Shown piece after piece: positions 1 through 15,931 of a stretch of DNA of 15,931 nucleotides. The notes beneath the pieces were generated by a model. The model had not been told where the DNA came from and did not search any database. It was given only the letters and a program-made list of their open reading frames with translations. Positions within the stretch are counted from its first letter, which is position 1; each line of letters begins with the position of its first letter. The stretch spans positions 1 to 15,931 of the forward strand of contig JANOWZ010000417.1 of assembly GCA_031418155.1 (NCBI GenBank). Direction: 5' to 3'. The translations under genes and the position numbers were made by a program. The stretch comes from Deinococcales bacterium (lineage in GTDB: Bacteria; Deinococcota; Deinococci; Deinococcales; JAAFIG01).

Positions 1-86
1 AAACTCAAACGCTCCTCGGCGGCCAAATTGTCAATCGCTTCAAGGCTCGAGGCTGCGAGCGGTGGCATTGGCTTGGCGACGGTCAT
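1..86 (-). CDS. Partial CDS (N-terminus only; continues beyond window start). Hypothetical protein, probably the next gene of the gvp operon. Translation begins MTVAKPMPPLAASSLEAIDNLAAEERLS
   Basis: The minus-strand frame is open from an ATG at 86..84 to position 1. That ATG overlaps the TGA stop of the upstream GvpL/F gene (ATGA at 83..86). The same coupling pattern recurs at four other junctions in the window. Only 28 residues are visible, which is too little to assign a family. Confidence 0.35.
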   Translation of the reverse strand, partial: MTVAKPMPPLAASSLEAIDNLAAEERLS

Positions 87-868
87 ACGATCGCCTCGAG
101 TTTCGGTTCTGCATTGGCAAACGAATACGGCGCGAACGGACCAGACAATTCTGCACGCATCGCCAAACGATCCGGCCAACCGGCAAGCTCACCCAGCAAA
201 AGCGATTCAGAAATCGAATCCAACAACACCGCACACTCGAGCAAACCCGGATTCGCAGCCTGAGACGCAGGAATTCGCTCAAGCACTTTGATTTCCGTGA
301 CCGCATCCTCGAGCCTCGAGAACGCCTCGCGGCGCAAATCGGGAAGAACTTTTTTAACCTCAACCTCGAGCGCATCTTTCAATTTGCGTTTGAACAAATA
401 CTGACGGCCCGGCGTCGAACCGTTCAACTCGGCCTGCAAATCATCCAACTCAGGATTCGCCTCGATCAAACGTGGCTCGAGTTCGTCACGGTCCACCCAA
501 ACCCGCACCGTGAATTCACGCTGACCGTGCAAGGATTTCAAACGATCAATCATGATTTGCGATTCACGCTCGAGCAAAATGTTCAAGCTTTCTAAATCCG
601 GCACGACCGAACCGAAACGCAACGGAATCACACCAGCATCAATAAAACTCGAGATCGTGCGGTCATGCAAAATCGCTTTACCAGCCACCCAATTTGGATC
701 TTCAACATTCTCGGTCAAGAGTTTTGAGAAATCATCGGCGTTCACAGCCTCACAAATTGCGCCAAGTTTCGCGTAAGAATGAACCTCGATTTTTCCACCA
801 CAAACGCCCTCAAGATTTTCTTCTCGAGCATCGGGAACGGTGAACCCATAGACGTAAAAACCCGTCAT
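83..868 (-). CDS. gvpL: Gas vesicle protein, GvpL/GvpF family
   Basis: The translation (MTGFYVYGFTVPDAREENLEGV ... VHSYAKLGAICEAV ... VIPLRFGSVV) has the conserved N-terminal YVYG and downstream RFG pattern of GvpF/L proteins. The ORF track starts it at 886 (MGGGAIMTGFYVYG). The ATG at 868..866 overlaps the gvpG TGA stop (ATGA), so it is the more likely start. Confidence 0.8.
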   Translation of the reverse strand: MTGFYVYGFTVPDAREENLEGVCGGKIEVHSYAKLGAICEAVNADDFSKLLTENVEDPNWVAGKAILHDRTISSFIDAGVIPLRFGSVVPDLESLNILLERESQIMIDRLKSLHGQREFTVRVWVDRDELEPRLIEANPELDDLQAELNGSTPGRQYLFKRKLKDALEVEVKKVLPDLRREAFSRLEDAVTEIKVLERIPASQAANPGLLECAVLLDSISESLLLGELAGWPDRLAMRAELSGPFAPYSFANAEPKLEAIV

Positions 869-1182
869 GATCGCGCCGCCGCCCATTCCGCCTTACGCGC
901 CTCAATCACTTCAATCTGCTCGAGCAACTCCGCCTCGAGGTCCATGAATTCATCCTCGGTGATGCGCCCCGCATCCAAATCCGCACCGAGCGAGGTGAGT
1001 TTGTGGATCAACGGTTTTTCATCCAGCAAGGTTTCTTCGGCCTGATCCGCGATTTGTTCCGCCACCCACAAGATCGGCCCCAGAATCAAATTCAACGGGC
1101 CGAGCAATTCCATGCCCTCGGTGCCAGCGCGAGCCATCAGCGTGAACCTCTGGAAAATGACTGTCTGGCGAGGGCTTGCCAT
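865..1182 (-). CDS. gvpG: Gas vesicle protein G (GvpG)
   Basis: A roughly 100 aa protein with the GvpG-like pattern ELLGPLNLILGPILWVAEQIADQAEETLLDEKPLIHKLTSLGADLDAGRITEDEFMDLEAELLEQI. The ATG at 1182 sits at the centre of a perfect 20 bp palindrome. An alternative internal start (MELLGPL, about 1113) is possible. Confidence 0.65.
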   Translation of the reverse strand: MASPRQTVIFQRFTLMARAGTEGMELLGPLNLILGPILWVAEQIADQAEETLLDEKPLIHKLTSLGADLDAGRITEDEFMDLEAELLEQIEVIEARKAEWAAARS

Positions 1183-1216
1183 GGCAAGCCCCTACGTACA
1201 GGGCGCTCAAGAACCA

Positions 1217-2011
1217 TCATTCCTCGTCATCCTCCCAACGCACGGTCATTTCGGAAAACGTGAATGGGGGCAATGGGCCGGTCAAACGAATCGTTAACAG
1301 GTCGTGTTGGTCGTCGAATTCGTGCAGTGCGTTTTCGACTTTCTCGAGTTCTGCTTGCGGCATCAGCACGGACAGGTTGGCGACGACCCCTTCGGGCAGC
1401 GTTCCGTTGGAGATGCCTTCGACGAGTCCGTTCAGTCGTTTCTCGAGCGCGGCTCCGACGTAATCGCGGCGTTTGAGAATCGCGTTTTCCATCATTTGTC
1501 CGAGTCGAATTCTGGCGTGATGGTCGGCGCTGGTGGCGATCTTGTCGCGCAGACTCGAGATTTCTGGGTGCTCACTTAAAACACGTTCGATGACTTCGGC
1601 CGGGTCGGTCCAGGTGGCACGAACGCTGAGTTCGACACGACCATCGACGGCATCGAGTTTGGCTTTCAACTCGTCGGCTTTTTGCGTCAAGAGTTTGCGT
1701 TCGATCACCTCTAAACTCGGACCGATGGTGTTGAAGCGCACCGGCAGAACGGGCGTGATCGCCATGATGGTTTCGACAATCGTTTTGTGGGCCAGTAAAT
1801 TCTTGCGGGCGATGCTGTAACGGTCACTCGAGTTCGCACTGAGGACCACGATCAAATCGCCGACGCGCAAGAGGAATGGTTGACCGGAATTCTCAATCGG
1901 TTTTTGCTCGAGCACGTCCGGTAAATCTGGGTGATTGCGGGCGACGGCGTAGAGATAAAACGGTCCTTCAACGGTTGCCAAATCCGGTTTTACGAGCGTC
2001 GCTTGCGTCAT
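1217..2011 (-). CDS. gvpF: Gas vesicle protein, GvpF/GvpL family
   Basis: The translation (GPFYLYAVARNHPDL ... VLPVRFNTIGPS ...) has the GvpF/L hallmarks. The ATG at 2011 overlaps the stop of the upstream gene (ATGA at 2008..2011). Confidence 0.8.
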   Translation of the reverse strand: MTQATLVKPDLATVEGPFYLYAVARNHPDLPDVLEQKPIENSGQPFLLRVGDLIVVLSANSSDRYSIARKNLLAHKTIVETIMAITPVLPVRFNTIGPSLEVIERKLLTQKADELKAKLDAVDGRVELSVRATWTDPAEVIERVLSEHPEISSLRDKIATSADHHARIRLGQMMENAILKRRDYVGAALEKRLNGLVEGISNGTLPEGVVANLSVLMPQAELEKVENALHEFDDQHDLLTIRLTGPLPPFTFSEMTVRWEDDEE

Positions 2012-2952
2012 GCGTTCACCGCTTTCGTGACGCGCACTCCGAGGCCATGCGTGCTTGCGGCCAGCAAATCTCGGGCCCAGGCGAGGTCGCGCATTTCGTC
2101 CGCCGCATTCGGGTTGTTCGGGTTGCGGTCCGGGTGACGTTCGAGCGCCAGTTTCTTGAAGGTTCGTGCGAGCGTATCGCCATCCACATCGTTATCGAGT
2201 CCGAGCGTTTTGCGGGCGCGATCCAAATCCAACGTGTTCGGCGTGATGATCTCGAGGCTGGCGAAGGCGAAGGCGGGTCCGGGGGCACCGATGCGCCAAG
2301 TGATCCGATCCTCGAGTTTCGCATCCAATTCCGTGATCGCATTTTCCATCGCTTCGAGTTGATCGCGTTTGACAAGGAGCGCCAGGTTGAAGGCGCTGTC
2401 TTCGCCGTTGCGTCCAACATTACCAACCTCGAGCACGCTGTCTTTCAGGCATTGGATTGCGAGGTTCAGCAGCGTTTCGCGTTCGCGTTCAAGTTGAGTC
2501 CCGATCATCATTCCGATTCGCGCCTGATCCTCGGTCGTGACCGTGCCACGCTCGAGCAATTCTTGACGGAACGCGCCGACATCTTCTTGAATAGCGGCGC
2601 GTGCAATCTCATCCTGAACATTCCAACGGGCCGCCAGATTGATTTGCGCCGTGTCCTGGAGCCGAGCGAGTTCGGACAAGAGCGTGTCCTCGTGCAATTC
2701 GAGTAGTTCGATCACCCGCTCACGGTTGGGCAGGTTCGCACCGAGTTTGCAGGGCAAGATGCTCGAGGCATTGACGCTGTGAATCGCGGTTTGATGCTCG
2801 AGCAGAATTTGTGTGAGTTGTGCAGGATCGGATGGCAGATTGATGCGTCCCTCACCGATCAACGCGGCGAGCGGTCCAACCCGCACGACCTCGAGCCCTG
2901 GAGACTGAATTTCTGTGGCATCGGCGCTGTAAATTCCGTAAATCGTGGTCAT
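2008..2952 (-). CDS. GvpF/L-family gas vesicle protein fused to a C-terminal DnaJ J-domain
   Basis: The N-terminal roughly 240 aa are GvpF/L-like (MTTIYGIYSADATE ... HSVNASSILPCKLG). The C-terminal roughly 70 aa (TLGLDNDVDGDTLARTFKKLALERHPDRNPNNPNAADEMRDLAWARDLL) form a canonical J-domain with the HPD tripeptide. Confidence 0.75.
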   Translation of the reverse strand: MTTIYGIYSADATEIQSPGLEVVRVGPLAALIGEGRINLPSDPAQLTQILLEHQTAIHSVNASSILPCKLGANLPNRERVIELLELHEDTLLSELARLQDTAQINLAARWNVQDEIARAAIQEDVGAFRQELLERGTVTTEDQARIGMMIGTQLERERETLLNLAIQCLKDSVLEVGNVGRNGEDSAFNLALLVKRDQLEAMENAITELDAKLEDRITWRIGAPGPAFAFASLEIITPNTLDLDRARKTLGLDNDVDGDTLARTFKKLALERHPDRNPNNPNAADEMRDLAWARDLLAASTHGLGVRVTKAVNA

Positions 2953-2968
2953 TTTGGGTTCCTCCCCA

Positions 2969-5119
2969 TCATCGCTTGCTGGCTTTAACCTCCCCGAGTG
3001 CGTTCTCGAGGTCGGATTGTGTTATCTCGAGGCTAATGCTTTCGTTGTCACCAGTTTCTTTCGTTGAATTAGGTATCGAGGCCACAATTGCGTTCTTGGC
3101 GAGGTGAGCTTGCAAGACCAGCATTGCCGCGCGTCGCACCAACCATTCGAGGTCGGCACCGCTCCAACCCTCTGTCTTTGCGGCCAGGGCATCCAGATTA
3201 AGCTCGCCAGCCGTCGCACGACCCCTCAAATGCACACCGAGGATTTCTGCCCGGTCCGATTCACTTGGCAATTTGAACTCGAGCACCTGTTCAAAGCGCC
3301 CAGGACGCAGTAAAGCCGGATCGAGCGATTCGGGCCGATTCGTTGCGCCCAAAATGATCACGTTCCCAAGACTCGAGATGCCATCCATTTCGGCCAGGAA
3401 TTGACCAATCACCCGGCTCGAGACGGCATCCGCATCGGCACGGTTCGCCAACAATGCGTCGATCTCGTCGAAGAAGACCACGCACGGGGCGCTGGCTCGG
3501 GCCTTGCGGAAGAGTTCGCGCACGGCCTTCTCGGACTCGCCGTAGTACCTCGAGAGAAATTGAGCACCACGCACGGCGATGAAATTCGCCTCGGATTCTT
3601 TGGCGACAGCCCGTGCCGTCAACGTCTTGCCGGTTCCGGGAGGACCCGCCAGCAAGATTCCACGCGGAGGCTCGAGCCGGAGTTGCGCGAACAATTCAGG
3701 GTGCTTGAGGGGAGCCTCGACCGCCTCGATCAATGCGGCTTTGACCTCAGACAAACCACCGATCTCCGTCCAACTCGCACCGGCAATATCGGATTCGGTC
3801 TCGCGGATCAAACTCGGTGAAACCTCACGCAGGGCTGCACGGAAATCCTCCACGCCAACCTCGAGTTGCAACATTTCCTGCGCACTCGGACCTCGACCTG
3901 AGGCCGTCCACGTTGGCAACTGTGAACGGACGCGGTGCATTCCAGCCTCTCGAGCCAAGGCCGCCAAATCCGCACCGACAAAGCCGTGTGTGATTCGCGC
4001 CAAGTCATCCAAATTCACGTCCGGCATCAATGGCATCGCCCGCGTGTGAACCTCAAGGATTTCGCGCCTGCCTTTTGCATCCGGCGGATTGATGACCACT
4101 TCGCGGTCAAACCGTCCGGGCCGACGCAAGGCCGGATCGAGGTTGTCCGGCAGGTTGGTCGCACCGATCACCACGACCTGACCGCGCCCGCCGAGGCCAT
4201 CCATCAACGAGAGGAGTTGCGCAACGACACGCTTCTCGACCTCGCCCTGAACCTCAGAACGCTTCGGACCAATCGCGTCGATCTCGTCCAAGAAAATAAT
4301 GCTCGGGGCTTTCGCTCGAGCCTCCTGAAAAATTTCGCGCAAACGCTTTTCCGAATCCCCATAAAACTTGCCAATGATTTCCGGGCCAGCCACCGAAATG
4401 AAATGCGCCCGTGTCTCACGCGCCACGGCTCGAGCAATCGTGGTCTTGCCGGTTCCGGGCGGGCCGTACAACAACACCCCTTTCGGAGGATCGATTCCCA
4501 ACTGCTCGAACACCTGCGGATAACGCAATGGCAACTCGACCAACTCGCGGACTCGAGCAACCTCACGCGATAAACCGCCGATGTCCTCGTAGCTTGCGCT
4601 CGAAGAAGATTGGGCTGGAGCTTGCGCCTCGCCGGAATTCTCGAGCGCCAAACGCGACTCGCCTCCGACCAACGCATGCGATCCAGGCTCGATGGATTTC
4701 ACCCGCAACTCCAATACCTTCGAGCCGAACAACTCCACGCGAACCCGATCACCCGCCGTCAACGCACGGTCCTGCAACAACGTCTTCAAATCCGAGATTG
4801 CCACGCCCGCACCAGAAATCACCTCGAGCACCACGCTCCGTGCCAAGACCGGCTCGAGTCTTGCAACACGCACTTTCGCACCGATGCTCGAACCCGCATT
4901 TTCTCGGGCCAAACCATCCAGCAACACGCCACGATCACGGTCCTCGGGTCTGGACGGCAACGCACGAACCGCCGTGCTGCGCTCACCCGTGACGACAATC
5001 ACACCACCGGCACGCACGCCCAAACGCTCGAGGTCGGCAGGGGACAGGCGGGCGAGGCCACGGCCCGCATCACGCGGCGCGGCCTCGGCGACGACGATCT
5101 CGAGGGCATCGATTACCAT
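2969..5119 (-). CDS. CDC48/VAT/p97-like AAA+ ATPase (N-domain plus two AAA modules)
   Basis: A CDC48-type N-domain ([21 protein letters not shown]) is followed by two complete AAA cassettes. D1 has [16 protein letters not shown] and [23 protein letters not shown]2 has [18 protein letters not shown] and [21 protein letters not shown]. The ORF track begins at a TTG (5131). The first ATG is at 5119. Confidence 0.85.
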
Positions 5120-5233
5120 GTTGGGTTCCAATTGCGGTTCTGTCGTAGGGGCATCGTGTAATGCACGCTGTTGCGTGACGCATGCCTCGCCCCTACATTC
5201 GCGTTCGCCGAATCAACAACTTGCATCAAACCC

Positions 5234-5725
5234 TCAACCCGCGAACGGAACCATCAACTCGAGGATTCCGTTCTGATAAGACTTCGTGAATTCACCTTTG
5301 ACGGCTTTGGAAAGCTCGAGCGTCTTCGCGTACTTGCGTGCCGCTGCACCGTTCGCTTCAAGCTTCAAGGTTTGTCCCTCGAGCGTGACTTGAATGCTGC
5401 TTTCAACCGCGCCTGGAAGTTCGGCAATCACGCTGTAATGTCCGGTTTCCTCTAGCACGTCAACCATCGGTTCGCGCACGGGTTCGACGCTGGGGTTGCC
5501 ACCGTTGTTCGCCATGTTGCCGAATGTGGAGACGGTCGGTTCACCATTTAAGTTCGTGCGAATGTTGACCCCGATCACACCCTCGAGTCCAGATTTTGTC
5601 GTGAAATTCTGCGTGCCGCCTTCAGCGTTTCCCGCCTGTTTTTGCAATTCTTGAACGACCTCGAGAAGATTGTTGATACCGGAAAAAATTCCGCCAAGTC
5701 CGCTGTTGTCGTTGGTTTTCGCCAT
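5234..5725 (-). CDS. Hsp20/alpha-crystallin family small heat-shock protein (GvpH-like)
   Basis: The alpha-crystallin domain is recognisable: VDVLEETGHYSVIAELPGAVESSIQVTLEGQTLKLEA ... KSYQNGILELMVP. An AGGAGA ribosome-binding site lies about 9 nt upstream of the ATG. The N-terminal region is Gly/Asn-rich. Confidence 0.75.
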   Translation of the reverse strand: MAKTNDNSGLGGIFSGINNLLEVVQELQKQAGNAEGGTQNFTTKSGLEGVIGVNIRTNLNGEPTVSTFGNMANNGGNPSVEPVREPMVDVLEETGHYSVIAELPGAVESSIQVTLEGQTLKLEANGAAARKYAKTLELSKAVKGEFTKSYQNGILELMVPFAG

Positions 5726-5756
5726 TGTGTTGTCTCCTGTTTTGTTGGGGATGTTG

Positions 5757-5812
5757 TGCGAAAAGGGCGAACGTCATGTGATACATGCTGAGCATGCTGA
5801 GTTCGCCCCTAC
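5757..5812 (-). terminator. Terminator-like or attenuator hairpin between the small ORF and the hsp20-like gene
   Basis: On the minus-strand transcript an 8 bp GC-rich stem GGGCGAAC...GTTCGCCC encloses a loop containing the palindrome AGCATGCT and the tandem CATGCTGAG x2. It is followed directly by TTTTCGC. Confidence 0.35.
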
Positions 5813-5830
5813 GGATTCAAAATTCTGGGT

Positions 5831-6121
5831 TCAGTACTCGAGCACCATTGATCCGCCTGATCCCATCGACCCCCGCTTTGGTGCGACCCGAGGGGAAATC
5901 ACTTCGGTTTCGTTTTGCAATTCAATGATTCGCGCTTCAAGTTTCGCCAGCGTTTTTTCACCGTCACTCACGCGCTGCCGCCAGTCGGCCAATCCTCGCT
6001 CGAGGCGCTTGCGTTCGGCGGTGAGTTGGTAGATTTGCAGGTACGTGCGGCTTTCAGATTTGGGCAAGGCCGAACGTCGCAAGCTCGAGGGTGCCAAAGC
6101 AGTTTTGCGTGGGGTGGTCAT
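5831..6121 (-). CDS. Hypothetical small protein (96 aa, basic N-terminus, predicted coiled-coil), gvp-operon member of unknown family
   Basis: A strong AAGGAG ribosome-binding site sits 7 nt upstream of the ATG. Its position between gvpN and hsp20 is consistent with operon membership. No family is recognisable by eye. Confidence 0.55.
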   Translation of the reverse strand: MTTPRKTALAPSSLRRSALPKSESRTYLQIYQLTAERKRLERGLADWRQRVSDGEKTLAKLEARIIELQNETEVISPRVAPKRGSMGSGGSMVLEY

Positions 6122-6137
6122 TGGGGCTCCTTCGGAG

Positions 6138-6229
6138 AGAGGAAAGTAAAAGCAGAGAAAAGAGGAAAGTAAGTTCAGATCAAGGTTTTAGGCTGTTACT
6201 TTCCTCTTTTCTCTTTAATCTTTCCTCTT
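6138..6229 (-). terminator. Long hairpin (perfect 19 bp stem AGAGAAAAGAGGAAAGTAA / TTACTTTCCTCTTTTCTCT, about 23 nt loop) immediately downstream of gvpN; possible intrinsic terminator or attenuator
   Basis: The perfect inverted repeat lies at 6154..6172 and 6196..6214. The outer flanks extend it to about 35 bp imperfect. On the minus-strand transcript it is followed by GCUUUUACUUUCC. Confidence 0.45.
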
Positions 6230-6235
6230 GTTTTT

Positions 6236-7240
6236 TTACAACGTCATGGCGCGTGATGGTTTGCGTTCACCACCGGCAAGCACGGGCTCGCGGATCTCGA
6301 GGATTTCCGTGCGTTCTGCTGTACGCTCGAGTGGTTTGATGGTGCGGGCTTTCGGCAAGAGGTGCAGCATTTTGGCAACCGCTTGGCTCGAGACGGTATG
6401 GCGTTCGTGTTCGTCGCTGATGCTGCCGGTCAGGACATCCAAAACCACGCGCTCGAACTCAAGGTTTCCGGCGCTGACTTCAAGGTTGCGGACGCTGGCT
6501 ACTCGAGCGATTTGCAGTGCGGCGCGAACGCTGTGTTTGATTTTCAGTTTGCTTTCGCCACGCACGCTGGCGACCAGTTCGGTGATGGCGAGCGCATCTT
6601 CGAGTTGCAATCCTGATCGGGCGGCAACAATTCCGCCTTGCGTCTCGAGGTCGAATCCCTCTAAACGCATGGTCACTAGGCGATCACGCAAGGCTTCTTG
6701 CGCGAGGTGCACTCCGGCGTAATCTTCCGGGTTGCTGGTGAAAATCGCTCGGAAGTCCGGGTGAACTTTCATGTACCCGCCCTTGCCCGCCGCGCTCGGG
6801 TAGATCAAAATACCTTCCTCGAGCACCGGCAACAGGACGTTGTTCGCTTCGGCTTTGGAGCGTGTGAACTCGTCATAAACGAGCGTGTAACCGTTCTTGC
6901 AGGCAATCGTCAGTCGTTCATCGACCCAGGAATTGCTGGAATCTTCGTCCACTTTCAAAACGCTGTGGATGTAGTTGTCCACGACTTTGCGGCGGCGAAA
7001 TCCGTTGTTCGCGCCCAGCAAATTGCTGGAACCAAACTCGTTGTCACCGGCGATCAGCACCATCGGGCGGCCCAGTTTCGTGGCGACATGCAACGCGAGT
7101 GTGGTTTTTCCGGTGCCGCTCGCGCCTTCAAAGTTCACGCCGAGGCCAGCCTCGAGATATCCCAAAGCGCGTTTGGTCAGGTCTTTGACCTGCGCGGTTT
7201 CAACGAAATCTTCGCGCTGTTTGGTGCTGATTTGACTCAT
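6236..7240 (-). CDS. gvpN: Gas vesicle protein GvpN (MoxR-like AAA+ ATPase)
   Basis: FVETAQVKDLTKRALGYLEAGLGVNFEGASGTGKTTLALHVATKLGRPMVLIAGDNEF matches the conserved GvpN N-terminus and Walker A closely. Walker B VYDEFTRS is present. The ATG overlaps the upstream stop (ATGA at 7237..7240). Confidence 0.9.
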   Translation of the reverse strand: MSQISTKQREDFVETAQVKDLTKRALGYLEAGLGVNFEGASGTGKTTLALHVATKLGRPMVLIAGDNEFGSSNLLGANNGFRRRKVVDNYIHSVLKVDEDSSNSWVDERLTIACKNGYTLVYDEFTRSKAEANNVLLPVLEEGILIYPSAAGKGGYMKVHPDFRAIFTSNPEDYAGVHLAQEALRDRLVTMRLEGFDLETQGGIVAARSGLQLEDALAITELVASVRGESKLKIKHSVRAALQIARVASVRNLEVSAGNLEFERVVLDVLTGSISDEHERHTVSSQAVAKMLHLLPKARTIKPLERTAERTEILEIREPVLAGGERKPSRAMTL

Positions 7241-8164: not shown

Positions 8165-8180
8165 CAAGACCTGTGTCTTG
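8165..8180 (-). terminator. Small hairpin CAAGACctgtGTCTTG 17 nt downstream of the gvpA stop, followed by a second GC-rich stem (CGGGC...GCCCG); possible partial terminator or attenuator after gvpA
   Basis: There is a perfect 6 bp inverted repeat with a 4 nt loop. No U-tract follows, so termination is uncertain. Confidence 0.25.
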
Positions 8181-8196
8181 GCCTGAATCTAAAAGA

Positions 8197-8840: not shown

Positions 8841-10661
8841 TTGAGTACACGAGGATTCGGCGACACAGACTGGACCGACGGGTTTTCTCGACCGTGGGAT
8901 GTTTCCGTGGCATCATTTGAAGCCATCGAAACCGACCTGGACGAGTTGATCGACCCGGACGGGATCGAGTCTGCATTGGCCATCGACGATCAGGGGAATT
9001 TCCTCGCCTGGATGGATTCGGAACGCGGGATGGCTCCAGTGCCGCTCGCGGCTTCAGAGTTCGAGGCTCCGGTGGCGCAAGATTTGAACGCGCCAGCGGC
9101 GAAAGTGTCTAAGGGTTTCAAACGGTTCACGCCGCCAGTTCCGGTGGTTGAGCCCAGCGAACCGACGACCTATCAGGCCAGCAGCGAGGCGATTGATGCG
9201 GTGTTTGCCGAACTCGAGGCGAGCGCCAAAGCCAGCACAGAACAGTCAGATGCACCCGAGGTTGAGGCGCAGGCAGATGTTCAGGTTCAGGCCGATTCGG
9301 ACATTTATGCTGAGGTCCATTCTGAAGATCAAGACGATCAGGGTGCGGTTGAAGCAAAGGCCAAGAAGCCAAAAATTGATCCGATGGCGCTCGAGGATGC
9401 GTTCGAGAGTGTGCCGTTTGACCTTCCAGAGTTGATGGGCGAACAGTCTGGCACTGTACTCAGTGAGCAACCTGTCGCGCTCGAGGGTGAAGCGGAGGCG
9501 GTCGAAGCTCAGGCAGAAGTTGAACTCCCAGCAGTTGAAGCTCAGGCAGAAGTGGTCGAGGTTGAAGTTCCAGCAATCGAAGCTCAGGTTGAAGTTGTTG
9601 AGGCCGAAGCAATTGTCATTCCCGAGGGCGAACCGGTCGAACCCGTCGCCGCCTGGAAGAAGCCCGTCAAACCCAAAAAGCAACCCAGCGAATTTGGCAT
9701 CGACGAAGTTCCACTCGAAGCGCTGCTCGAGATTGCGAATACCGAGGCCGAAGACGAAGAGAATCATGCCGAGGCCGAAGCCGTCACGATTGACCTGCAA
9801 CCCGAGGCGGATGCGCTTGCCGCAGTTGGCTTGGGCGAAGCAAGCCTTCAGGAAGGCATCATGGCCGCTTACGAGATGGAGGGTGCGCCAATCACCGATT
9901 TGAGCGCATTGATCGAGAGCAGCAAAGCACTCGAGGTTTCAACCGCCCGTGAAGCGGTCAACGAACCGGTCGCCACACCCGTTCATGCCGGATTTGTTGC
10001 TACTGCTGAAAGCAATGAATCGCCAGAGGCCGTGCTCCAGGCGCTCGAGACCAGCGTGCTCGGATTTGAAACACCAGAGATTCAACCGCTCGATGCAGAA
10101 CTCGAAACGGATTCCAGCGTCGCGGCAGTGCTGGCCCCAGAAATCATGAATGTCCCGATGATGCCCGCGACGACCACGTTGCGCCGTCACTTCGACGCGA
10201 CCGACCTGATCGAAGCGCAGATTCGTTTGCGTCACGCACTGCGCCCATTGGACGTTTCGATGGTCTCGCTCTTGGGTCGCGCCGCCGAACGTTGCGCCCT
10301 CGAGTTGCCGGGAATCAAAACGATTGCACTCGCCGAACTCGGCGACAATGGGATTGCAGTCACCGCCAAGATCAAAGCCGTCGAAAGCTTCCGCGAGATG
10401 CTTGCGGGCATCAGCGAGGGCTCGAGCGGCGTTCGTGGCGACCTGAGCGTCGTTGACATCAGCGACCTCGGCTTGGATGAAGTGGTCTTGCCACTCGCCG
10501 GACCGCACCTCTTGCTGACCCGTCTTTCGCCACACCCGGACAAACCGGGTCGCATGCGCGGCACGGTCTCTCTCTCTGGCCTCGTGAACCTTCGCGCTGG
10601 CGCATCATTCCTCGATCAGGTCGTCTCGAAACTCGAGGCTCCGATCACGCTGATGGTCTGA
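8841..10661 (+). CDS. Acidic tandem-repeat protein with a C-terminal 2-oxoacid dehydrogenase E2 acyltransferase (CAT-like) catalytic-domain homologue lacking the catalytic His/Asp
   Basis: A TTG start is preceded by an AAAGGGGG ribosome-binding site. The N-terminal roughly 430 aa are highly acidic and low-complexity with EAQAEV-type repeats. The C-terminal roughly 170 aa align to the E2 catalytic domain: RRHFDATDLIEAQIRLRH against HFDKTDITELEAFRK, VVDISDLGLDEV against FTISSIGGLG, and TVSLSGLVNLRAGASFLDQVVSKLEAP against ISLSFDHRVIDGADGARFI. In that alignment DHR is replaced by LVN. Confidence 0.7.
   Translation: MSTRGFGDTDWTDGFSRPWDVSVASFEAIETDLDELIDPDGIESALAIDDQGNFLAWMDSERGMAPVPLAASEFEAPVAQDLNAPAAKVSKGFKRFTPPVPVVEPSEPTTYQASSEAIDAVFAELEASAKASTEQSDAPEVEAQADVQVQADSDIYAEVHSEDQDDQGAVEAKAKKPKIDPMALEDAFESVPFDLPELMGEQSGTVLSEQPVALEGEAEAVEAQAEVELPAVEAQAEVVEVEVPAIEAQVEVVEAEAIVIPEGEPVEPVAAWKKPVKPKKQPSEFGIDEVPLEALLEIANTEAEDEENHAEAEAVTIDLQPEADALAAVGLGEASLQEGIMAAYEMEGAPITDLSALIESSKALEVSTAREAVNEPVATPVHAGFVATAESNESPEAVLQALETSVLGFETPEIQPLDAELETDSSVAAVLAPEIMNVPMMPATTTLRRHFDATDLIEAQIRLRHALRPLDVSMVSLLGRAAERCALELPGIKTIALAELGDNGIAVTAKIKAVESFREMLAGISEGSSGVRGDLSVVDISDLGLDEVVLPLAGPHLLLTRLSPHPDKPGRMRGTVSLSGLVNLRAGASFLDQVVSKLEAPITLMV
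9500..9620 (+). repeat. Imperfect tandem DNA repeat (about 3 units of 33 to 42 nt, core GAAGCTCAGGCAGAAGT) encoding VEAQAEV(V/E) repeats
   Basis: GAAGCTCAGG(C/T)(A/T)GAAGT recurs at about 9506, 9540 and 9582. Confidence 0.6.
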
Positions 10662-10689
10662 TGATGACGAACTTTCATCAATTCTCGGC

Positions 10690-10758
10690 TGTGCTAGACG
10701 CGAACAAGAATTTCTCGAGCAATATTTTAAAAATTATCATGCAGTGGAAAGGAAACAT
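10690..10758 (+). promoter_or_regulatory. AT-rich segment (TTTCTCGAGCAATATTTTAAAAATTATCATG) upstream of the HD-GYP gene; candidate promoter
   Basis: The local AT-richness is unusual in a window of roughly 58% GC. It lies directly upstream of the GGAAAGGAAA ribosome-binding site and the ATG at 10759. No exact -35/-10 assignment is made. Confidence 0.3.
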
Positions 10759-11403
10759 ATGAGTGATCTCTTCAGAGACGGTTTCATTGACGAGATCGTT
10801 GATGCCTACGTCAAGGACTTCGGCGACCGCGTGGAAAACACCGACCGCTTCGAGCACTACTCCCCAGGACATGCCCGTCGTGTAGCCGAAACCAGCGTCG
10901 CCATCTGCGAAGGTTTGGATTTCGAGGAAGAAGACATTCGCGTCGTCAAAACCGCCGGGTTGCTCCACGACATCGGCGAGGTCATTCAAAAGCACGCCTT
11001 CTACGGCGCACCTCGAGTCTTGACCCCAGAAGAAACCGTTGAGATGTGGCAACACAGCCTGATCGGTGAACGCGAAGTGGCACGTCGCGGTTTTGGACGC
11101 AAAGAACAGTTGCTGGTGCGTTGGCATCACGAACGCTGGAACGGTCAGGGCTACCCGGACATGCTGTTCGGACCCGACTTGCCGCTCGGTGCTCGCATCA
11201 TCCGTTTGGCGGACACCTGGGATGCGCTGACAAACGACCGTCCGTGGCGTTTGGCGATGTCTGAAGCCGATGCGCTCGAGGAGATCAAACTCGGTGCAGG
11301 CATGGAGTTCGATCCAGAACTCGTCGGCTTGTTCCTCGAGTTGCACCAATGCGGAGCCTTGATCCCAAGTGAAAACTTCGCCATCTCAGGAGGCAAACGA
11401 TGA
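10759..11403 (+). CDS. HD-GYP domain protein (stand-alone cyclic-di-nucleotide phosphodiesterase-like)
   Basis: The HD motif (LLHDIGEV) and the HD-GYP signature WHHERWNGQGYPD are both present. The start is assigned to the ATG at 10759, 5 nt after the GGAAAGGAAA ribosome-binding site. The ORF track begins at a GTG at 10744. Confidence 0.8.
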   Translation: MSDLFRDGFIDEIVDAYVKDFGDRVENTDRFEHYSPGHARRVAETSVAICEGLDFEEEDIRVVKTAGLLHDIGEVIQKHAFYGAPRVLTPEETVEMWQHSLIGEREVARRGFGRKEQLLVRWHHERWNGQGYPDMLFGPDLPLGARIIRLADTWDALTNDRPWRLAMSEADALEEIKLGAGMEFDPELVGLFLELHQCGALIPSENFAISGGKR

Positions 11404-12338
11404 GTGGCGTCAAAGAATACGTCGGCGCAGAAGTCATGCTGCTCTCAAAAGTCCTCAAGCTCGAGAGTGTCGCCGTACCCTTCGGTGGACGCAACCCAAT
11501 GTGGCTCGGCTGGTGGATGAAGACTTTGGGCAAGAGCGTGCACATGAACGACCTGTTGCACTTTTCATACATGGACTCGGTCGGCCTGATCGAAAACGAA
11601 GGCTTCTTGTTGGACGGCGACACCCTCGGCGAACTGACCAAAGACATCGGCGACGGCAAGCAACTGACCAACCCAGAACTCGCCCGTCTCGTCCCAATGC
11701 AAGACGCATACTTCTTTGATCAACTTCGTCCACGCATCGAAAAACTGCCAGCCCGTCAAAAAGGTATCGCCATTCGAGCCGGATACAACACCATGCGATA
11801 CGCCCAAGTCATGGACTCCTCGAGATTCGTGAACCTGCGCGTCTCCCTCGACAAAGTCTTCGCCCGTGAAGTCGAAGAGATCAACAAGCGCATCACCTCG
11901 AGCGGCAAAGGCCAAGCGTACATGGAAGAGGCCGGAAGCTTCGTCGGCAACGTTCGCGCCAGCGCCCTGTACATGCAACTGCCAAGCATGGGCGGCTTCA
12001 GCACCGAATACGCTGCGGGCGCACGTCCACGCGGACCACTCGGACGCGAAATCTGGGCACGCGGCCCAAGCAAAACCTGGATGCCAGAACTGAAGGCCGC
12101 CACCAAAGGCACCTTCGGCGACCGCTTCACCTCACGCGAAGCGTACTTCAAAATGGTCTCGGAATTCCTCGAGAAAGCCAACGATTACCCAGTCTGGGTG
12201 TTCAACCTCGAAGAAAGCGAATACCCCGATGTCCTGCGTGCCGTGATGCAGTTCCGTAAGCCAAAAGCCGTGCATCGTTTTGACACACGCGAAGCGAGCG
12301 GCGGGTACATGAGCTACTTCTTGATCGCAGAGAAATAA
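11400..12338 (+). CDS. Dam-like (D12-class N6-adenine methyltransferase fold) protein with a non-canonical motif IV (MQLPS in place of DPPY); translationally coupled to the HD-GYP gene
   Basis: An ATGA overlap with the HD-GYP stop spans 11400..11403. Residue patterns parallel E. coli Dam: KEYVGAEVMLLSKVL against KWAGGKYPLLDDI, VPFGGR against PFVGAG, HMNDLLHFSYM against ADINSDLISLY, and RAGYNTMRYA against NRYGYNGLCRYN. The position expected for DPPY reads YMQLPSMGG. No [DNS]PP[YFW] occurs anywhere in the protein. Confidence 0.5.
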   Translation: MSGVKEYVGAEVMLLSKVLKLESVAVPFGGRNPMWLGWWMKTLGKSVHMNDLLHFSYMDSVGLIENEGFLLDGDTLGELTKDIGDGKQLTNPELARLVPMQDAYFFDQLRPRIEKLPARQKGIAIRAGYNTMRYAQVMDSSRFVNLRVSLDKVFAREVEEINKRITSSGKGQAYMEEAGSFVGNVRASALYMQLPSMGGFSTEYAAGARPRGPLGREIWARGPSKTWMPELKAATKGTFGDRFTSREAYFKMVSEFLEKANDYPVWVFNLEESEYPDVLRAVMQFRKPKAVHRFDTREASGGYMSYFLIAEK

Positions 12339-12365
12339 GCTCGAGAATTTAACAAGCTGAATCAT

Positions 12366-12399
12366 TTCCCGCTCGAGGTTTGGGCGGGGAATTTTGTTG
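12366..12399 (+). terminator. Putative rho-independent terminator after the Dam-like gene
   Basis: The stem TTCCCGC..GCGGGGAA with loop TCGAGGTTTGG is followed by AATTTTGTT. Confidence 0.4.
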
Positions 12400-12509
12400 G
12401 TCTCAAGGCGGTAAGCCATTGAACGCATTGCCGTAGATGCCCGCGCTGAATATGCTTTCCCGAATGATTCAACCCACACTGATTCGGAAATCTGTCTCGA
12501 GCCTCGGGG

Positions 12510-14291
12510 ATGTTTGTGCCCGTAGATAGAGTGCCCGCTCCGGCGAATGGATTTTTCGGAACTCGAAGCAGAACATTTTTTTCGTATTACAAACCTTATC
12601 GGCGCTTGCTCTATACCGACCTGGCTTGCGCATTCGTTGTCTCGGCGATCACCCTGATCCTGCCATTGTGCGCAAGTTACGTCACCAAGAACGTGCTCGA
12701 GGGAAATCATCCCGATGCGCTCGGGCAAATTTTACTGGTGGGTGCTTTGATGCTGGCGCTGGTTATGGCTTACACGTTTTGCAACACCTTCGTTTCTTAC
12801 CAAGGTCACATGATGGGAACCCTGATGGAAGCAGACATGCGCCGCGACCTGTTTGCGCAGTACCAAACGTTATCGTTTGGTTTTTACGATGGGCAACGAA
12901 CGGGACAGTTGATGTCGCGCCTGACCAACGACCTTTACAACATCGGTGAGTTTGCGCACCACGGCCCAGAAGACCTCGCCATTGCCGTGGTGAAATTCGC
13001 CGGGGTCTTCGCCATTCTCTTGAGTGTGAATGTCCAGTTGACTGCGGTGGTGTTCTTGCTTTTCCCAGTGATGCTGCTCTGGGCATTGTATTTTAATCGC
13101 AAAATGAATCAGGCGCTGCGAGCCATGCGGCAACGCATCGGCGATGTCAATGCACAGGTGGAGGACACGCTTGCAGGGATTCGCGTGGCGCAGTCGTTCA
13201 GCAACGAACAGCAGGAACAAGCAAAGTTTGACCTTCAGAACCACCGTTTCGTTGAAAGTATGCGTGAAGGTCACAAAAGCGAGGCGTACTTCTCGAGTGG
13301 CATAACGGCTTTCAGTCAACTCTTGACGGTGGTGATCGTGGTTTTTGGTGGCCTTGCCATCGCCAATGTTTCGTTGGGTTTGCCAGATTTGGTGACATAC
13401 CTGCTGTACGTTGCCGTTCTGGTCGATCCGATTCAGCGGTTCGTGAATTTTGCCAGGGTCTTTCAGGAGGGCAGCACTGGTTTTGAGCGCTTCATGGAAA
13501 TCATGGAACTCGAGCCAGAGATTCAAGATGCCGACAACACGAGAGAACTCACTCAGGTTAGAGGGCAGGTACAATTTCAGGCGGTCAGTTTCAAATACGC
13601 CGAGGATTCTGAGAATGTGCTCGAGCAGCTTTCCTTGGACATCAAGGCTGGCGAGTTCGTCGCGCTGGTTGGGCCTTCTGGTGTTGGCAAGACCACACTC
13701 TGTTCGTTGATTCCACGGTTTTACGACGTGACTGAGGGACAAATTCTGCTCGATGGTCAGGACATCAAAGGCATTGCGTTGCAATCGCTCAGGCGGCAGA
13801 TCGGCGTGGTTCAGCAAGATGTCTACCTATTCGCCGGGACCGTCTTGGAAAATATTCGCTACGGTAAGCTCGAGGCCAGTCTGGAAGAGGTCATGGAGGC
13901 GGCCAAAAAAGCCAACGCCCACGGTTTCATCATGGCGCTGCCGAACGGATACGACACCGATGTTGGGCAGCGCGGCGTAAAACTTTCGGGCGGACAGAAG
14001 CAACGCCTGAGCATCGCTCGAGTCTTTTTGAAGAATCCACCGATCATCATTTTTGACGAGGCGACAAGCGCCCTGGACAACGAGAGCGAAAAGGCGATCC
14101 AGGATTCCCTCGAGACCCTGAGCAACAACCGCACCACCCTGGTCATCGCGCACCGGTTGTGCACTGTGCGAAACGCGCAACGAATCCTGGTCCTGACCGA
14201 TGGCGGCATTGCTGAACAGGGCACACACGCGGAACTGATCGCGGCGGGTGGGACGTATGCGAATTTGTACAACACGCGACTCAGCATGTAA
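12510..14291 (+). CDS. ABC transporter, fused permease/ATP-binding protein (MsbA/exporter type)
   Basis: The N-terminal transmembrane region begins YYKPYRRLLYTDLACAFVVSAITLILP. The C-terminal NBD carries Walker A GPSGVGKTT, signature LSGGQKQRLSIAR, Walker B IIIFDEATSALD and H-loop IAHRL. A GTG at 12516 is an alternative start with better ribosome-binding-site spacing. Confidence 0.9.
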   Translation: MFVPVDRVPAPANGFFGTRSRTFFSYYKPYRRLLYTDLACAFVVSAITLILPLCASYVTKNVLEGNHPDALGQILLVGALMLALVMAYTFCNTFVSYQGHMMGTLMEADMRRDLFAQYQTLSFGFYDGQRTGQLMSRLTNDLYNIGEFAHHGPEDLAIAVVKFAGVFAILLSVNVQLTAVVFLLFPVMLLWALYFNRKMNQALRAMRQRIGDVNAQVEDTLAGIRVAQSFSNEQQEQAKFDLQNHRFVESMREGHKSEAYFSSGITAFSQLLTVVIVVFGGLAIANVSLGLPDLVTYLLYVAVLVDPIQRFVNFARVFQEGSTGFERFMEIMELEPEIQDADNTRELTQVRGQVQFQAVSFKYAEDSENVLEQLSLDIKAGEFVALVGPSGVGKTTLCSLIPRFYDVTEGQILLDGQDIKGIALQSLRRQIGVVQQDVYLFAGTVLENIRYGKLEASLEEVMEAAKKANAHGFIMALPNGYDTDVGQRGVKLSGGQKQRLSIARVFLKNPPIIIFDEATSALDNESEKAIQDSLETLSNNRTTLVIAHRLCTVRNAQRILVLTDGGIAEQGTHAELIAAGGTYANLYNTRLSM

Positions 14292-14430
14292 GGCTCGAGC
14301 CCTGTACGACGCGGGGCGTTTCAAATCGTCCGGCTGACTGATTTCGATGGCCCGGAGCGGGCAGTGCCGATTGTGCAATGATGCTGCAAGATGTTGTCCC
14401 AAGCTGAACCGCTGGGAGAGAGGCACAATC

Positions 14431-15732
14431 ATGGCTCACGCCTTTCCCCGACCGCAACGGCCAAATGCTGACACGAAACTTGCCGCAAGACCGTTGACAC
14501 TCGAGTTGTACGGCCCACCGGGAGGTCTGCCCGAAGTGGCACTCGAGGCTGAACGCATCGTGGCGAACCCTTGGAAACCGCACAAGTTTGCGGCGAACAT
14601 CATCGCGGGTCGAGGTTTCGTGCGGGTGCGCAACGCCTCGTGGGAACTCGCCTGCGAACTCGCGTCACGGTTGAGCACGGTTCACGATGTCCGCTTGATG
14701 CTGATCGACACCCGAGTGCAACACTGGCATGACCTCGAGCTTGCCTTGAAACGTTCCACTTGGGCGGACGTGCTGCCCGATGGGGTCAACCTGAAATTAC
14801 ACGCCAAAGCCGGGCCGGGAACTTGCCCGCACGCGGGGCACCTCGAGGAGATCGCGCAAAAGTTTTTTGAATCTCGAGGCTTCACGGTGATCGAGGATGA
14901 ACCGAGCATTCGCGTGGACCTCGAGACGTTTGCCGATCATTTTCGCGTTCGGGTCAGTTTGGGCAACGATGCGCTGCACAAACGCGGCTGGCGGGCCGTG
15001 ACGGGAACACTCGCCACCCTACGCGAAGACATCGCCTGTGCCGCCCTGATGCGACTCTCCGTGTTTGAACCTCGAGCGTTGCAGGCGAGTCAGATCAGCG
15101 TTCCGTTCGCGGGCAGTGGCACGCTCGGGATCGAAACTTGGCACGCTTTGAACGGACTGCCGCCCGCAGTTTGGGATGTGGAACGCCCGTGGCAATACTT
15201 GCTCGAGCCGAAAGAAACAACGATCTCATGGTGGCGCAAACGCACCTTGCGGGCCGCACTTGAGGCGAAACTACCAACAATCAAATTTGTTGAACGCGAT
15301 GCACGACAGGCCGAGGAACTGACGGCGAACATGGTTTTTGCGCAGGCGAAACTCGAGGAATTCGGCCTGGTCTTTGCCGATGTCGAACTGATCGAGGAAG
15401 ATGTCTTCAAACTGCCGAACGAGGAAATGGCCCCGGCGGGTCAAGTCACCTTGCTGCCGTTGCATCCACCGTATGGCCTGCGCCTCGGCAGCCAGGATGA
15501 GGCGGTCACGATTTACTCGAGGCTCGGGCGTTCCGTGCAGGCTTGGGGCGAAAACGCGACTCGAGCCAAAATCCAGGTGGACGGTGGTGCGCTGATTGGG
15601 TTCTGTTTGTGCGGCGATGAAGCCTCATGGCGGGCGTTCATGGGTGGACTCAAAACAGCCCGATCTGAAACGAGTCACATCACCCAAGGTGGTTTGGACG
15701 TGCGCGTGGTCTGTTTCGAGTTCTCAATGTAA
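14431..15732 (+). CDS. THUMP-domain class I SAM-dependent RNA methyltransferase (RlmL/Trm14-like, COG0116 family)
   Basis: The N-terminal ferredoxin-like/THUMP region is followed by SAM-binding motif I (VPFAGSGTLGIE) and motif IV LLPLHPPYGLRLG. The start is assigned to the ATG at 14431, after a GGGAGAGAGG ribosome-binding site. The ORF track begins at 14347 with no ribosome-binding site. Confidence 0.75.
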   Translation: MAHAFPRPQRPNADTKLAARPLTLELYGPPGGLPEVALEAERIVANPWKPHKFAANIIAGRGFVRVRNASWELACELASRLSTVHDVRLMLIDTRVQHWHDLELALKRSTWADVLPDGVNLKLHAKAGPGTCPHAGHLEEIAQKFFESRGFTVIEDEPSIRVDLETFADHFRVRVSLGNDALHKRGWRAVTGTLATLREDIACAALMRLSVFEPRALQASQISVPFAGSGTLGIETWHALNGLPPAVWDVERPWQYLLEPKETTISWWRKRTLRAALEAKLPTIKFVERDARQAEELTANMVFAQAKLEEFGLVFADVELIEEDVFKLPNEEMAPAGQVTLLPLHPPYGLRLGSQDEAVTIYSRLGRSVQAWGENATRAKIQVDGGALIGFCLCGDEASWRAFMGGLKTARSETSHITQGGLDVRVVCFEFSM

Positions 15733-15742
15733 AGCTCGAGAA

Positions 15743-15931
15743 TTACCGTGCGGCTCGAGGATCAAGCGCGTCACGCAACGCATCACCAATCAAATTGAAT
15801 GACAGCACCGAAATCAGAATCGCCATTGCAGGCGCACTCGAGGCCCAGGGTGCGTTTGAAATGTAATTGCGGGTCAGGCTGACGGTTGCGCCCCATTCGG
15901 GAATCGGTGGTTGCGCCCCGAAGCCGATGAA
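15743..15931 (-). CDS. Partial CDS (C-terminus only): ABC transporter permease of the OppC/DppC/NikC family
   Basis: The minus-strand translation is ...QPPIPEWGATVSLTRNYISNAPWASSAPAMAILISVLSFNLIGDALRDALDPRAAR*. This is the characteristic C-terminal signature of BPD-type oligopeptide permeases (FNLLGDGLRDALDPR). The stop TAA lies at 15745..15743. The gene is convergent with the THUMP gene across a 10 nt gap. It is absent from the ORF track because it has no in-window start. Confidence 0.8.
   Translation of the reverse strand, partial: FIGFGAQPPIPEWGATVSLTRNYISNAPWASSAPAMAILISVLSFNLIGDALRDALDPRAAR

Follow-up and report, generated by a model that had tools for sequence, protein, structure and literature searches.

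The closest described system to the word reported here is HIP1 (GCGATCGC), a highly iterated palindrome (HIP) of cyanobacteria. HIP1 sites are conserved and have been argued to be under selection (PMC5861425). They are read by orphan methylases, and HIP1 has been proposed to act as an uptake signal and as a tag by which a lineage recognises its own DNA (10.64898/2026.06.24.733823). Elhai proposed a role in methyl-directed mismatch repair (PMC4390886) and Xu et al. one in nucleoid structure; an abundance comparable to that of HIP1 was stated to be unseen outside cyanobacteria (PMC5861425). Here we report on the hexamer CTCGAG, apparently an undescribed highly iterated palindrome, in a contig of 15,931 bp (hereafter the window) from a metagenome-assembled genome (MAG) of Deinococcales that carries a gas-vesicle (gvp) gene cluster, and in its uncultured relatives (hereafter the clade). 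Searches of the open literature for over-represented CTCGAG, for HIPs beyond the cyanobacteria and for gas-vesicle Deinococcota turned up no description of such a word.

CTCGAG shares with HIP1 and the other cyanobacterial HIPs (GGGATCCC, GGCGCC, GCsGC and rCCGGy) the form of a short palindrome, and its 19-43-fold over-representation compares with 15-300-fold for HIP1 (PMC4390886, PMC5861425). As with HIP1, sites lie in every reading frame as well as in intergenic DNA, related genomes retain both the sites and their synonymous codons more often than codon usage predicts, and the word occurs lineage-wide in the sampled loci. One-off variants are common rather than depleted, in agreement with Elhai's report on HIP1 (PMC4390886). 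Both words co-occur with strong avoidance of other palindromes, and the cyanobacterial loci were the only control pool to approach the clade in this respect. The two differ in that CTCGAG is a hexamer instead of an octamer, a different word in a different phylum (Deinococcota), and denser, with 6.8 sites per kb against ∼0.3-2.9 per kb for HIP1; HIP1 itself is absent from the clade pool. HIP1 also has the cognate orphan methylases DmtA and DmtC, for which no counterpart was found in ∼130 kb of clade DNA. HIP1 is reported to show a periodicity of 10-90 kb, and the 16-kb window is too short to show such periodicity.

The uptake signal sequences (USS) of Haemophilus and the DNA uptake sequences (DUS) of Neisseria are over-represented and evenly spaced, lie within genes and affect the proteome, and a tag-type explanation is established for them. 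CTCGAG is likewise over-represented and lineage-specific, lies in genes in all frames at tolerant positions, affects the proteome and, in the window, L005 and L007, is more evenly spaced than random. Unlike USS and DUS, it has no flank consensus (positions -6 to +6). For USS and DUS an uptake receptor has been demonstrated, whereas any uptake receptor for CTCGAG is hypothetical.

Orphan methylases offer another comparison. Their targets (Dam GATC, CcrM GANTC and, in Nocardia, CTCGAG) are palindromic too, and CTCGAG specificity exists in nature without a partner nuclease; the Nocardia sites are clustered at replication origins (PMC4752239). Such targets are enriched only locally, for instance at replication origins, and not 20-40-fold throughout a genome. 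One further report describes CTCGAG and TCGA methylation as common to one hot-spring host-phage group. With restriction avoidance and with the word bias left by very-short-patch (VSP) repair, CTCGAG shares an effect that is specific to palindromic hexamers, and the same DNA avoids many other palindromes. Its sign is nevertheless opposite to that of restriction avoidance, and the near-match signature of VSP repair is absent.

Results

CTCGAG is the commonest hexamer of the window

All evidence presented here was drawn from ∼130 kb around one locus in several relatives. The closest genomes are those of uncultured Deinococcales MAGs, namely L007 (94% GvpN identity) and L005 and L006 (76% each). 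Deeper relatives are the Deinococcota MAG L009 (58%) and the Trueperaceae MAG L008 (52%).

The window contains 108 exact copies of CTCGAG at a mean spacing of 148 bp. Dinucleotide shuffles predict 5.7-5.8 copies, with a maximum of 14 in 200 shuffles, which corresponds to a 19-fold excess. A preliminary description of the sequence had counted about 105 copies by eye and proposed a roughly 20-fold over-representation; both estimates hold, while its GC content of about 58% has to be corrected to 56.4%. Markov models of order 0 and order 2 give expectations of 4.8 and 11. Those of order 3 (32.5) and order 4 (86.5) are inflated and not independent of the motif, because the pentamers CTCGA and TCGAG (132-133 copies) mostly stem from it, 108 of them lying inside CTCGAG. 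The word ranks first among all hexamers of the window, the runners-up being hexamers that overlap it, and no other palindromic hexamer in the window is enriched. The flanks of the sites (-6 to +6) have a near-background composition without any extended consensus, and the unit is therefore the bare hexamer and not a longer repeat. Pooled clade DNA (78 kb) contains 484 copies against 18.4 expected.

The HIP1 octamer has no copies in either the window or the 78-kb pool. Its core CGATCG occurs once in the window, where 11.3 copies are expected, and three times in the pool (32.5 expected), in line with the earlier remark that the canonical HIP1 word is not over-represented.

The excess spans all reading frames and intergenic DNA

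Within genes, 97 sites are observed, compared with 16.3±3.4 (maximum 27) under a synonymous-codon shuffle that holds each protein sequence and the overall codon usage constant. All three frames contribute, with 67 sites read as CTC-GAG (Leu-Glu), 11 as xCT-CGA-Gxx and 19 as xxC-TCG-AGx, where the shuffle predicts 14.2, 0.6 and 1.3, respectively. Eleven sites fall outside gene calls, and seven of these lie in true intergenic DNA (1,494 bp), for which 0.53 are expected (P=1.6e-6).

Leu-Glu pairs are written CTC-GAG in 67 of 91 cases, against 8-14 predicted from codon usage. The mirror control GAGCTC is absent, GAG-CTC being used for none of the 50 Glu-Leu pairs. In the window we saw no preference for CTC where Leu precedes Asp, nor for GAG where other residues stand before Glu. 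Codon or dipeptide bias is thus refuted as a sufficient explanation by the enrichment in all three frames, the intergenic sites and the lack of GAGCTC. The preliminary description had reached the same view from copies in at least two codon frames, including the xxC-TCG-AGx site of gvpA at 8384. It had also listed non-coding copies; these exist, but its coordinates were off by 0-26 bp, the true starts being 8055, 10714, 12340, 12372, 12496, 14294 and 15735. A count near expectation and an excess confined to one frame had been set beforehand as outcomes that would speak against the signal, and the data show neither.

CTCGAG sites are conserved and have altered protein sequences

Retention of window sites in the relatives was compared with that of all other hexamers of the same aligned blocks. 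L007, at 90.6% nucleotide identity, keeps 49 of 55 CTCGAG sites (89%) but only 59.6% of other hexamers (P=1.5e-6). In L006 (73% identity), 19 of 38 sites are kept (50%, versus 17.5%; P=5e-6), and in L005 (72% identity) 10 of 22 (45%, versus 13.6%; P=3e-4). In Trueperaceae, which lack the excess, retention of window sites is at background (1 of 13). Turnover is about balanced, with 6 sites found only in the window and 8 only in L007, and the differences are mostly transitions.

A codon control, carried out as by Xu et al. for HIP1 and restricted to positions with a conserved amino acid, gave a concordant picture. CTC codons inside the motif are retained in 97% of cases in L007, 89% in L006 and 75% in L005, compared with 63%, 30% and 23% outside it. 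GAG follows the same trend (94% versus 51% in L006).

The motif also extends its influence to the proteins. The window proteins contain 91 Leu-Glu pairs where 47.9 are expected, compared with 50 Glu-Leu pairs. For GvpN, Cdc48 and two GvpF/L proteins, clade sequences have an observed/expected ratio of Leu-Glu of 1.5-2.5, whereas orthologues of other phyla have one of ∼0.7-1.2. Wherever the window encodes Leu-Glu as CTCGAG, clade relatives have Leu-Glu in 54-89% of cases and other phyla in only 0-20%, where LQ, FE, IE, VE or LK are typical. We therefore conclude that the DNA word has pulled amino-acid sequences towards itself. CTCGAG has roughly doubled the Leu-Glu dipeptide frequency in clade proteins.

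Sites repel each other at short range

Only 5 gaps in the window are shorter than 30 bp, where 19 are expected. The window and L005 both have a spacing coefficient of variation of 0.74 and L007 one of 0.62, where random placement gives ∼0.98 (P≤0.001); L006 and L009 do not share this evenness. Of 500 gaps pooled, 20 measure 0-20 bp (63 expected) and 12 exceed 480 bp (19.5 expected). Sites therefore avoid close proximity to one another, and long stretches without a site are rarer than random placement predicts. The median distance between an existing CTCGAG site and the closest other site is 82 bp. For Leu-Glu pairs encoded by other codon pairs, the median distance to the nearest site is 44 bp, the same as for random positions.

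The excess is shared by a clade of uncultured Deinococcales

We surveyed 80 gvpN loci from genome collections, ∼70 of them from other phyla. The closest relatives show CTCGAG counts of 118 against 2.8 expected (L005, 46% GC), 146 against 4.9 (L006) and 87 against 3.8 (L007), an excess of 23-43-fold. None of the ∼70 gvpN loci from other phyla has a CTCGAG excess. The cyanobacterial loci showed an excess of their own CGATCG, the HIP1 core, and this positive control validates the method. Deeper relatives with an excess are L009 (25 against 1.3) and the unclassified L024 (14 against 1.2). These two have a 12-19-fold excess at a lower density of 1.7-2.5 per kb. The trait may predate the core clade or extend beyond it. 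Trueperaceae L008 reaches 2.8-fold.

Cultured Deinococcota, sampled via plasmids, lack the excess of the clade. CTCGAG counts are 8 against 18.7 expected in D. radiodurans MP1 and 26 against 15.5 in Thermus pTT27. In Oceanithermus (87 against 20.3) and Allomeiothermus (39 against 9.9), the excess is only 4-fold and looks codon-driven, a product of high-GC codon usage. GAGCTC is likewise raised in Oceanithermus (45 against 18.6), and in Allomeiothermus its count of 12 is close to the 13.2 expected.

Among related MAGs of 45-57% GC, site density is nearly constant at 5.7-8.5 per kb. The non-gvp flanks of L005, L006 and L007 and the opp operon beyond the right end of the window have 5.7-10.9 sites per kb, and the excess is therefore not a property of the gvp cluster. 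All clade loci and ∼40 kb of non-gvp flanks carry it.

Viral and metagenome contigs were also scanned with the pattern CTCGAG-N(105-135)-CTCGAG-N(105-135)-CTCGAG, aimed at further clade DNA. Most of the matches listed were high-GC contigs with a parallel rise of CTCGAG and GAGCTC, a sign of codon usage. Among the matches listed, the clade signature is confined to two short metagenome contigs, L251 and L271, with 9 CTCGAG against 0.3 expected and 10 against 0.6, and no GAGCTC, TCGCGA or GTCGAC. They have no evident homology to the window locus (no alignment was made) and offer small independent hints of a genome-wide pattern. In several high-GC viral loci of IMG/VR (L108, L170, L093, L188 and others), the CTCGAG excess is codon-driven, because GAGCTC is equally common there. 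These loci contain no CTGGAG/CTCCAG despite many Leu-Glu pairs written as CTCGAG, a pattern suggestive of BpmI/GsuI-type site avoidance.

Near-matches are not depleted

Under the codon null, the near-matches TTCGAG/CTCGAA (21 against 24.6 expected) and CTTGAG/CTCAAG (9 against 9.0) are close to expectation, and the others range from 0.4 to 1.6 times expectation. In the pooled 78 kb, under the dinucleotide null, near-matches span 0.6-2.5 times expectation. Variants at the outer positions are the most enriched, with TTCGAG/CTCGAA at 2.5 times; CTTGAG/CTCAAG stands at 1.4 times. Enriched one-off variants are what the decay of abundant sites would give. A directed, VSP-like conversion of near-matches into the palindrome, one of the causes suggested in the preliminary description, is not supported, since near-matches are at or above expectation and not depleted.

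The sole methyltransferase gene of the window, near its right end, was considered as the cognate DNA methylase. It was rejected because it encodes an RlmL/Trm14-type RNA guanine methylase (Pfam UPF0020; NCBIfam RlmK/RlmL 8e-19, Trm14 1e-8).

Most other palindromes are avoided

The other 63 palindromic hexamers total 88 copies in the window, where 283 are expected. Several have no copies at all despite substantial expectations: GCGCGC (18.6), TCGCGA (12.6), TTCGAA (10.0), CCGCGG (9.7), GGCGCC (8.5) and GTCGAC (7.0). GCCGGC, GACGTC, ACGCGT, GAGCTC and GGATCC are absent as well. The avoidance persists under the codon-shuffle null. In the pooled clade DNA, 17 of 48 palindromes (≥10 expected) fall below 0.15 of expectation, compared with 6 of 2,001 non-palindromic words. 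In comparably sized pools drawn from other phyla as controls, 0-1 palindromes fall that low; the cyanobacteria, with 10 of 54, and D. radiodurans, with 3 of 30, alone approach the clade. Collectively, 31 other GC-rich palindromes stand at 0.09-0.25 of expectation in the core clade (4-10-fold depleted) and at 0.46-1.03 elsewhere.

Avoidance of this extreme and broad kind was seen in the window, L005, L006, L007 and L329. It is presumably caused by many restriction systems. The CTCGAG excess and the avoidance are separable, because L009 and L024 have the excess with only mild avoidance.

Gene content of the window and location of the sites

The minus strand carries the gas-vesicle cluster, which contains 63 CTCGAG sites (4.6-11.2 per kb per gene), and the plus strand carries non-gvp genes with 34 intragenic sites (3.9-8.5 per kb). 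All features are listed in Table 1. Two accessory genes are unusual for a gvp cluster: a Cdc48-type double AAA+ ATPase with a CDC48 N-domain, and a fusion of GvpF/L with a DnaJ J-domain. Several metagenome assemblies made independently of each other contain the window DNA at 93-99.8% identity; a megablast comparison with plasmids yielded no match.

Differences between the window and near-identical strains (L002, L003 and L004) are clustered in a few short hypervariable blocks. Around the 5' end of the 96-aa open reading frame (ORF), 69 strain differences fall within 170 bp, and the other hypervariable area comprises the region upstream of gvpA and the 5' end of the 584-aa ORF. This suggests that the blocks are recombination imports or fast-evolving segments.

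In three of the five plus-strand genes, CTCGAG stands 1-2 nt past a TAA stop codon (TAAgCTCGAG, 12336-12345; TAAggCTCGAG, 14289-14299; TAAagCTCGAG, 15730-15740). About 0.3 such cases are expected among 15 genes (post-hoc P ∼0.004), and none of the minus-strand genes shows one. Two of the intergenic sites, in the segments 8055-8076 and 12365-12400, share the 16-nt flank CTCGAGgtttgggcgg, and the second is embedded in a terminator-like hairpin with a T run behind it.

Table 1. Genes, CTCGAG sites and other features of the window (15,931 bp).
Feature	Coordinates	Strand	Remarks
gvp cluster genes	83..8415	-	three gvpF/L, gvpG, Cdc48-type AAA ATPase, Hsp20-like gene, 96-aa ORF, gvpN, MarR-like gene, gvpA
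GvpF/L-DnaJ J-domain fusion	2008..2952	-	
Cdc48-type double AAA+ ATPase	2969..5131	-	
Non-gvp genes	8907..15732	+	584-aa ORF, HD-domain protein, 312-aa ORF, ABC exporter, 433-aa RlmL/Trm14-like RNA methylase
RlmL/Trm14-like RNA methylase gene	14431..15732	+	
CTCGAG starts, part 1	46, 95, 236, 308, 315, 365, 476, 569, 648, 823, 919, 934, 1343, 1442, 1554, 1827, 1907, 2251, 2311, 2428, 2551, 2762, 2797, 2890, 3005, 3026, 3278, 3372, 3417, 3549, 3671, 3860, 3949		palindrome, no strand
CTCGAG starts, part 2	4315, 4429, 4552, 4640, 4823, 4853, 5027, 5099, 5258, 5315, 5378, 5582, 5660, 5837, 5999, 6084, 6296, 6326, 6387, 6502, 6644, 6818, 7151, 7247, 7354, 7376, 7549, 7591, 7664, 7789		palindrome, no strand
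CTCGAG starts, part 3	8055, 8384, 8542, 9213, 9390, 9480, 9726, 9930, 10044, 10299, 10421, 10632, 10714, 11012, 11275, 11335, 11460, 11819, 11897, 12168, 12340, 12372, 12496, 12696, 13292, 13509, 13620, 13869		palindrome, no strand
CTCGAG starts, part 4	14017, 14109, 14294, 14500, 14542, 14734, 14842, 14873, 14920, 15071, 15202, 15352, 15516, 15560, 15735, 15754, 15837		palindrome, no strand
Intergenic site between MarR-like gene and gvpA	8055..8060	.	shares flank CTCGAGgtttgggcgg with site 12372
Site in gvpA, xxC-TCG-AGx	8384..8389	-	Asn-Ser-Ser
Intergenic site upstream of gvpA	8542..8547	.	
Intergenic site upstream of HD-domain gene	10714..10719	.	
Intergenic site after 312-aa gene	12340..12345	.	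1 nt past stop codon, TAAgCTCGAG
Intergenic site within terminator-like hairpin ttcccgCTCGAGgtttgggcggggaatttt	12372..12377	.	hairpin read straight from the sequence
Intergenic site before ABC transporter	12496..12501	.	9 nt upstream of start codon
Intergenic site after ABC transporter	14294..14299	.	2 nt past stop codon, TAAggCTCGAG
Site after RNA methylase gene	15735..15740	.	2 nt past stop codon, in 10-bp spacer before convergent oppC; gene calls from L329
Tightest site pair	308..320	.	starts 7 bp apart
Longest site-free stretch	8548..9212	.	gap 671 bp; coincides with strain-hypervariable region
Strain-hypervariable blocks	5992..6237, 8428..9188		differences to L002, L003, L004
Strain-hypervariable blocks, comparison with L004	8428..8870, 8939..9188		gvpA upstream region and 5' end of 584-aa ORF

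Discussion

CTCGAG is very probably a HIP-like word under constraint at the DNA level. This follows from its excess in all frames and in intergenic DNA, from its override of synonymous codon choice and from the retention of its sites. The pressure acts on the DNA itself, not on codons, peptides or RNA. The preliminary description had proposed a HIP-style signal with a word other than that of HIP1, and the inverse of restriction-site avoidance. The codon-shuffle, intergenic, GAGCTC, lineage and conservation tests all agree with both proposals.

The presence of a dyad-symmetric word that is maintained site by site suggests that CTCGAG is read on double-stranded DNA, presumably by a dimeric sequence-specific protein common to the whole clade. 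It is plausible, if somewhat short of probable, that CTCGAG is kept at about one copy per 150 bp through the genomes of an uncultured Deinococcales clade with gvp genes as a self-tag, by drive and selection. For the mechanism we tentatively prefer a combination of self-tagging, methylation and DNA exchange, with rather less assurance. Here, CTCGAG would mark DNA of the own lineage. The putative reader could be a solitary methyltransferase of XhoI specificity, a component of DNA uptake or recombination, or both; an orphan CTCGAG DNA methyltransferase is possible. Site-bearing fragments would be favoured in exchange or repair between relatives, and sites would accumulate by molecular drive and selection up to a saturating spacing. 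Such a self-tag would jointly explain the sites in all frames, their even spacing and conservation, the enriched one-off variants, the remodelling of the proteome and a density that is independent of GC content. Cultured Deinococcota (Deinococcus, Thermus) are naturally competent. The self-tag model fits this competence as well as current ideas on HIP1 (10.64898/2026.06.24.733823; PMC4390886; PMC5861425).

A role internal to the chromosome, epigenetic or architectural, is nearly as likely as the self-tag. In this scenario, an orphan methyltransferase present throughout the clade, or else an abundant protein of the nucleoid, would act on CTCGAG, and DNA exchange would play no part. The sites could help mismatch repair to tell the strands apart, control replication or organise the nucleoid, and selection would favour a regular density of marks. 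The occurrence in all frames and between genes, the conservation and the even spacing speak for this as much as for the self-tag, and both mismatch repair (PMC4390886) and nucleoid structure (PMC5861425) have been proposed for HIP1. Nocardia, with its orphan CTCGAG methylases and origin clusters (PMC4752239), offers a further parallel. We still regard such a role as possible rather than probable, given that no methylase or binding protein was identified in ∼130 kb of clade DNA and that the Dam GATC and CcrM GANTC targets are not enriched 20-40-fold. More clearly unlikely is a neutral mutational drive, through gene conversion or biased repair (for example Vsr-like VSP repair tied to an m5C methylase), with near-matches turned into CTCGAG and the abundance as a functionless by-product. 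VSP repair does distort the frequencies of CCWGG-related words in E. coli, and the commonest site differences between relatives are the transitions TTCGAG, CTCAAG and CCCGAG. However, near-matches are at expectation under the codon null and at 0.6-2.5 times expectation in the pool, with the deamination products TTCGAG/CTCGAA the most enriched. All six positions are conserved, not one cytosine alone, and neither the 45-50% positional conservation at ∼72% identity nor the site repulsion would be expected under random replenishment. Known VSP-type effects are also ∼2-fold, not 20-40-fold.

Codon bias can be ruled out, as can repeat elements and artefacts. A preference of translation for certain codon pairs or dipeptides, under which CTC-GAG would be the favoured spelling of Leu-Glu and proteins would be rich in that pair, could draw on the 62% of sites in the Leu-Glu frame and on the 1.9-fold enrichment of Leu-Glu. 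A mild excess of CTCGAG does follow codon usage, together with a rise of GAGCTC, in Thermales of high GC and in many viral contigs of high GC. We consider such a preference very improbable as the cause here. The remaining two frames are 15-18-fold enriched and intergenic DNA 13-fold, fixed proteins and codon usage predict 16 sites where 97 are seen, and GAG-CTC is never used for Glu-Leu. As orthologues in other phyla have no Leu-Glu excess, that excess is a consequence of the motif and not its cause. A dispersed repeat or mobile element, of the repetitive extragenic palindrome or miniature inverted-repeat transposable element type, or an assembly or cloning artefact with XhoI sites, is less credible still. 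The 16-nt flank common to two intergenic sites might be taken as a trace of a repeat, but flanks are otherwise near background and sites are found in frame within the genes of conserved proteins. Assemblies made independently by different projects (ENA, NCBI, Logan) share these sites.

Several observations weigh against the self-tag model, or against its extension to whole genomes. A screen of the ∼130 kb of clade loci for DNA methylase motifs ([DNS]PP[YFW], PCQ + ENV) gave no convincing match, in what is a small fraction of a genome; the sole motif match was SPPF in a 211-aa ORF of L007. No CTCGAG-specific protein was identified in the same DNA. The edges of strain-divergent blocks, which are candidate recombination imports, do not lie at CTCGAG sites. 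At 99-93% identity, the deficit of site losses is not significant, and the more-even-than-random spacing was not reproduced in L006 or L009. In contrast to USS and DUS, which are asymmetric 9-12-mers at ∼1 per kb, CTCGAG is a symmetric 6-mer at ∼7 per kb. Finally, all relatives surround the same gvp locus, except for the ∼40 kb of flanks.

For practical purposes, CTCGAG is a strong binning and taxonomic marker for the clade, and it biases codon-usage, dipeptide and selection statistics calculated on clade genomes.

HIP1 has been an unexplained feature of cyanobacteria for three decades. CTCGAG adds an independent case, denser and with another word, from another phylum. It shows the hallmarks of HIP1, from the DNA-level excess in every frame and the sites conserved at synonymous positions to a remodelled proteome, non-random local spacing in part of the loci and strong avoidance of other palindromes. 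With a second example, an isolated oddity becomes a class open to comparative study, in which methylases, competence and recombination proteins and restriction systems shared by HIP-bearing lineages, and missing from their HIP-poor relatives, can be compared. That CTCGAG evolved independently as a counterpart of HIP1, and that in methylated form it tags DNA for self-recognition or uptake during exchange within a clade of Deinococcota that is naturally transformable and rich in restriction systems, is a doubtful proposition at present. If it is true, the hyper-abundance of CTCGAG and the loss of almost every other GC-rich palindrome would both reflect a single lifestyle, that of intense DNA traffic policed by many restriction systems, and a second, unrelated HIP would give the comparison needed to settle the purpose of these words.

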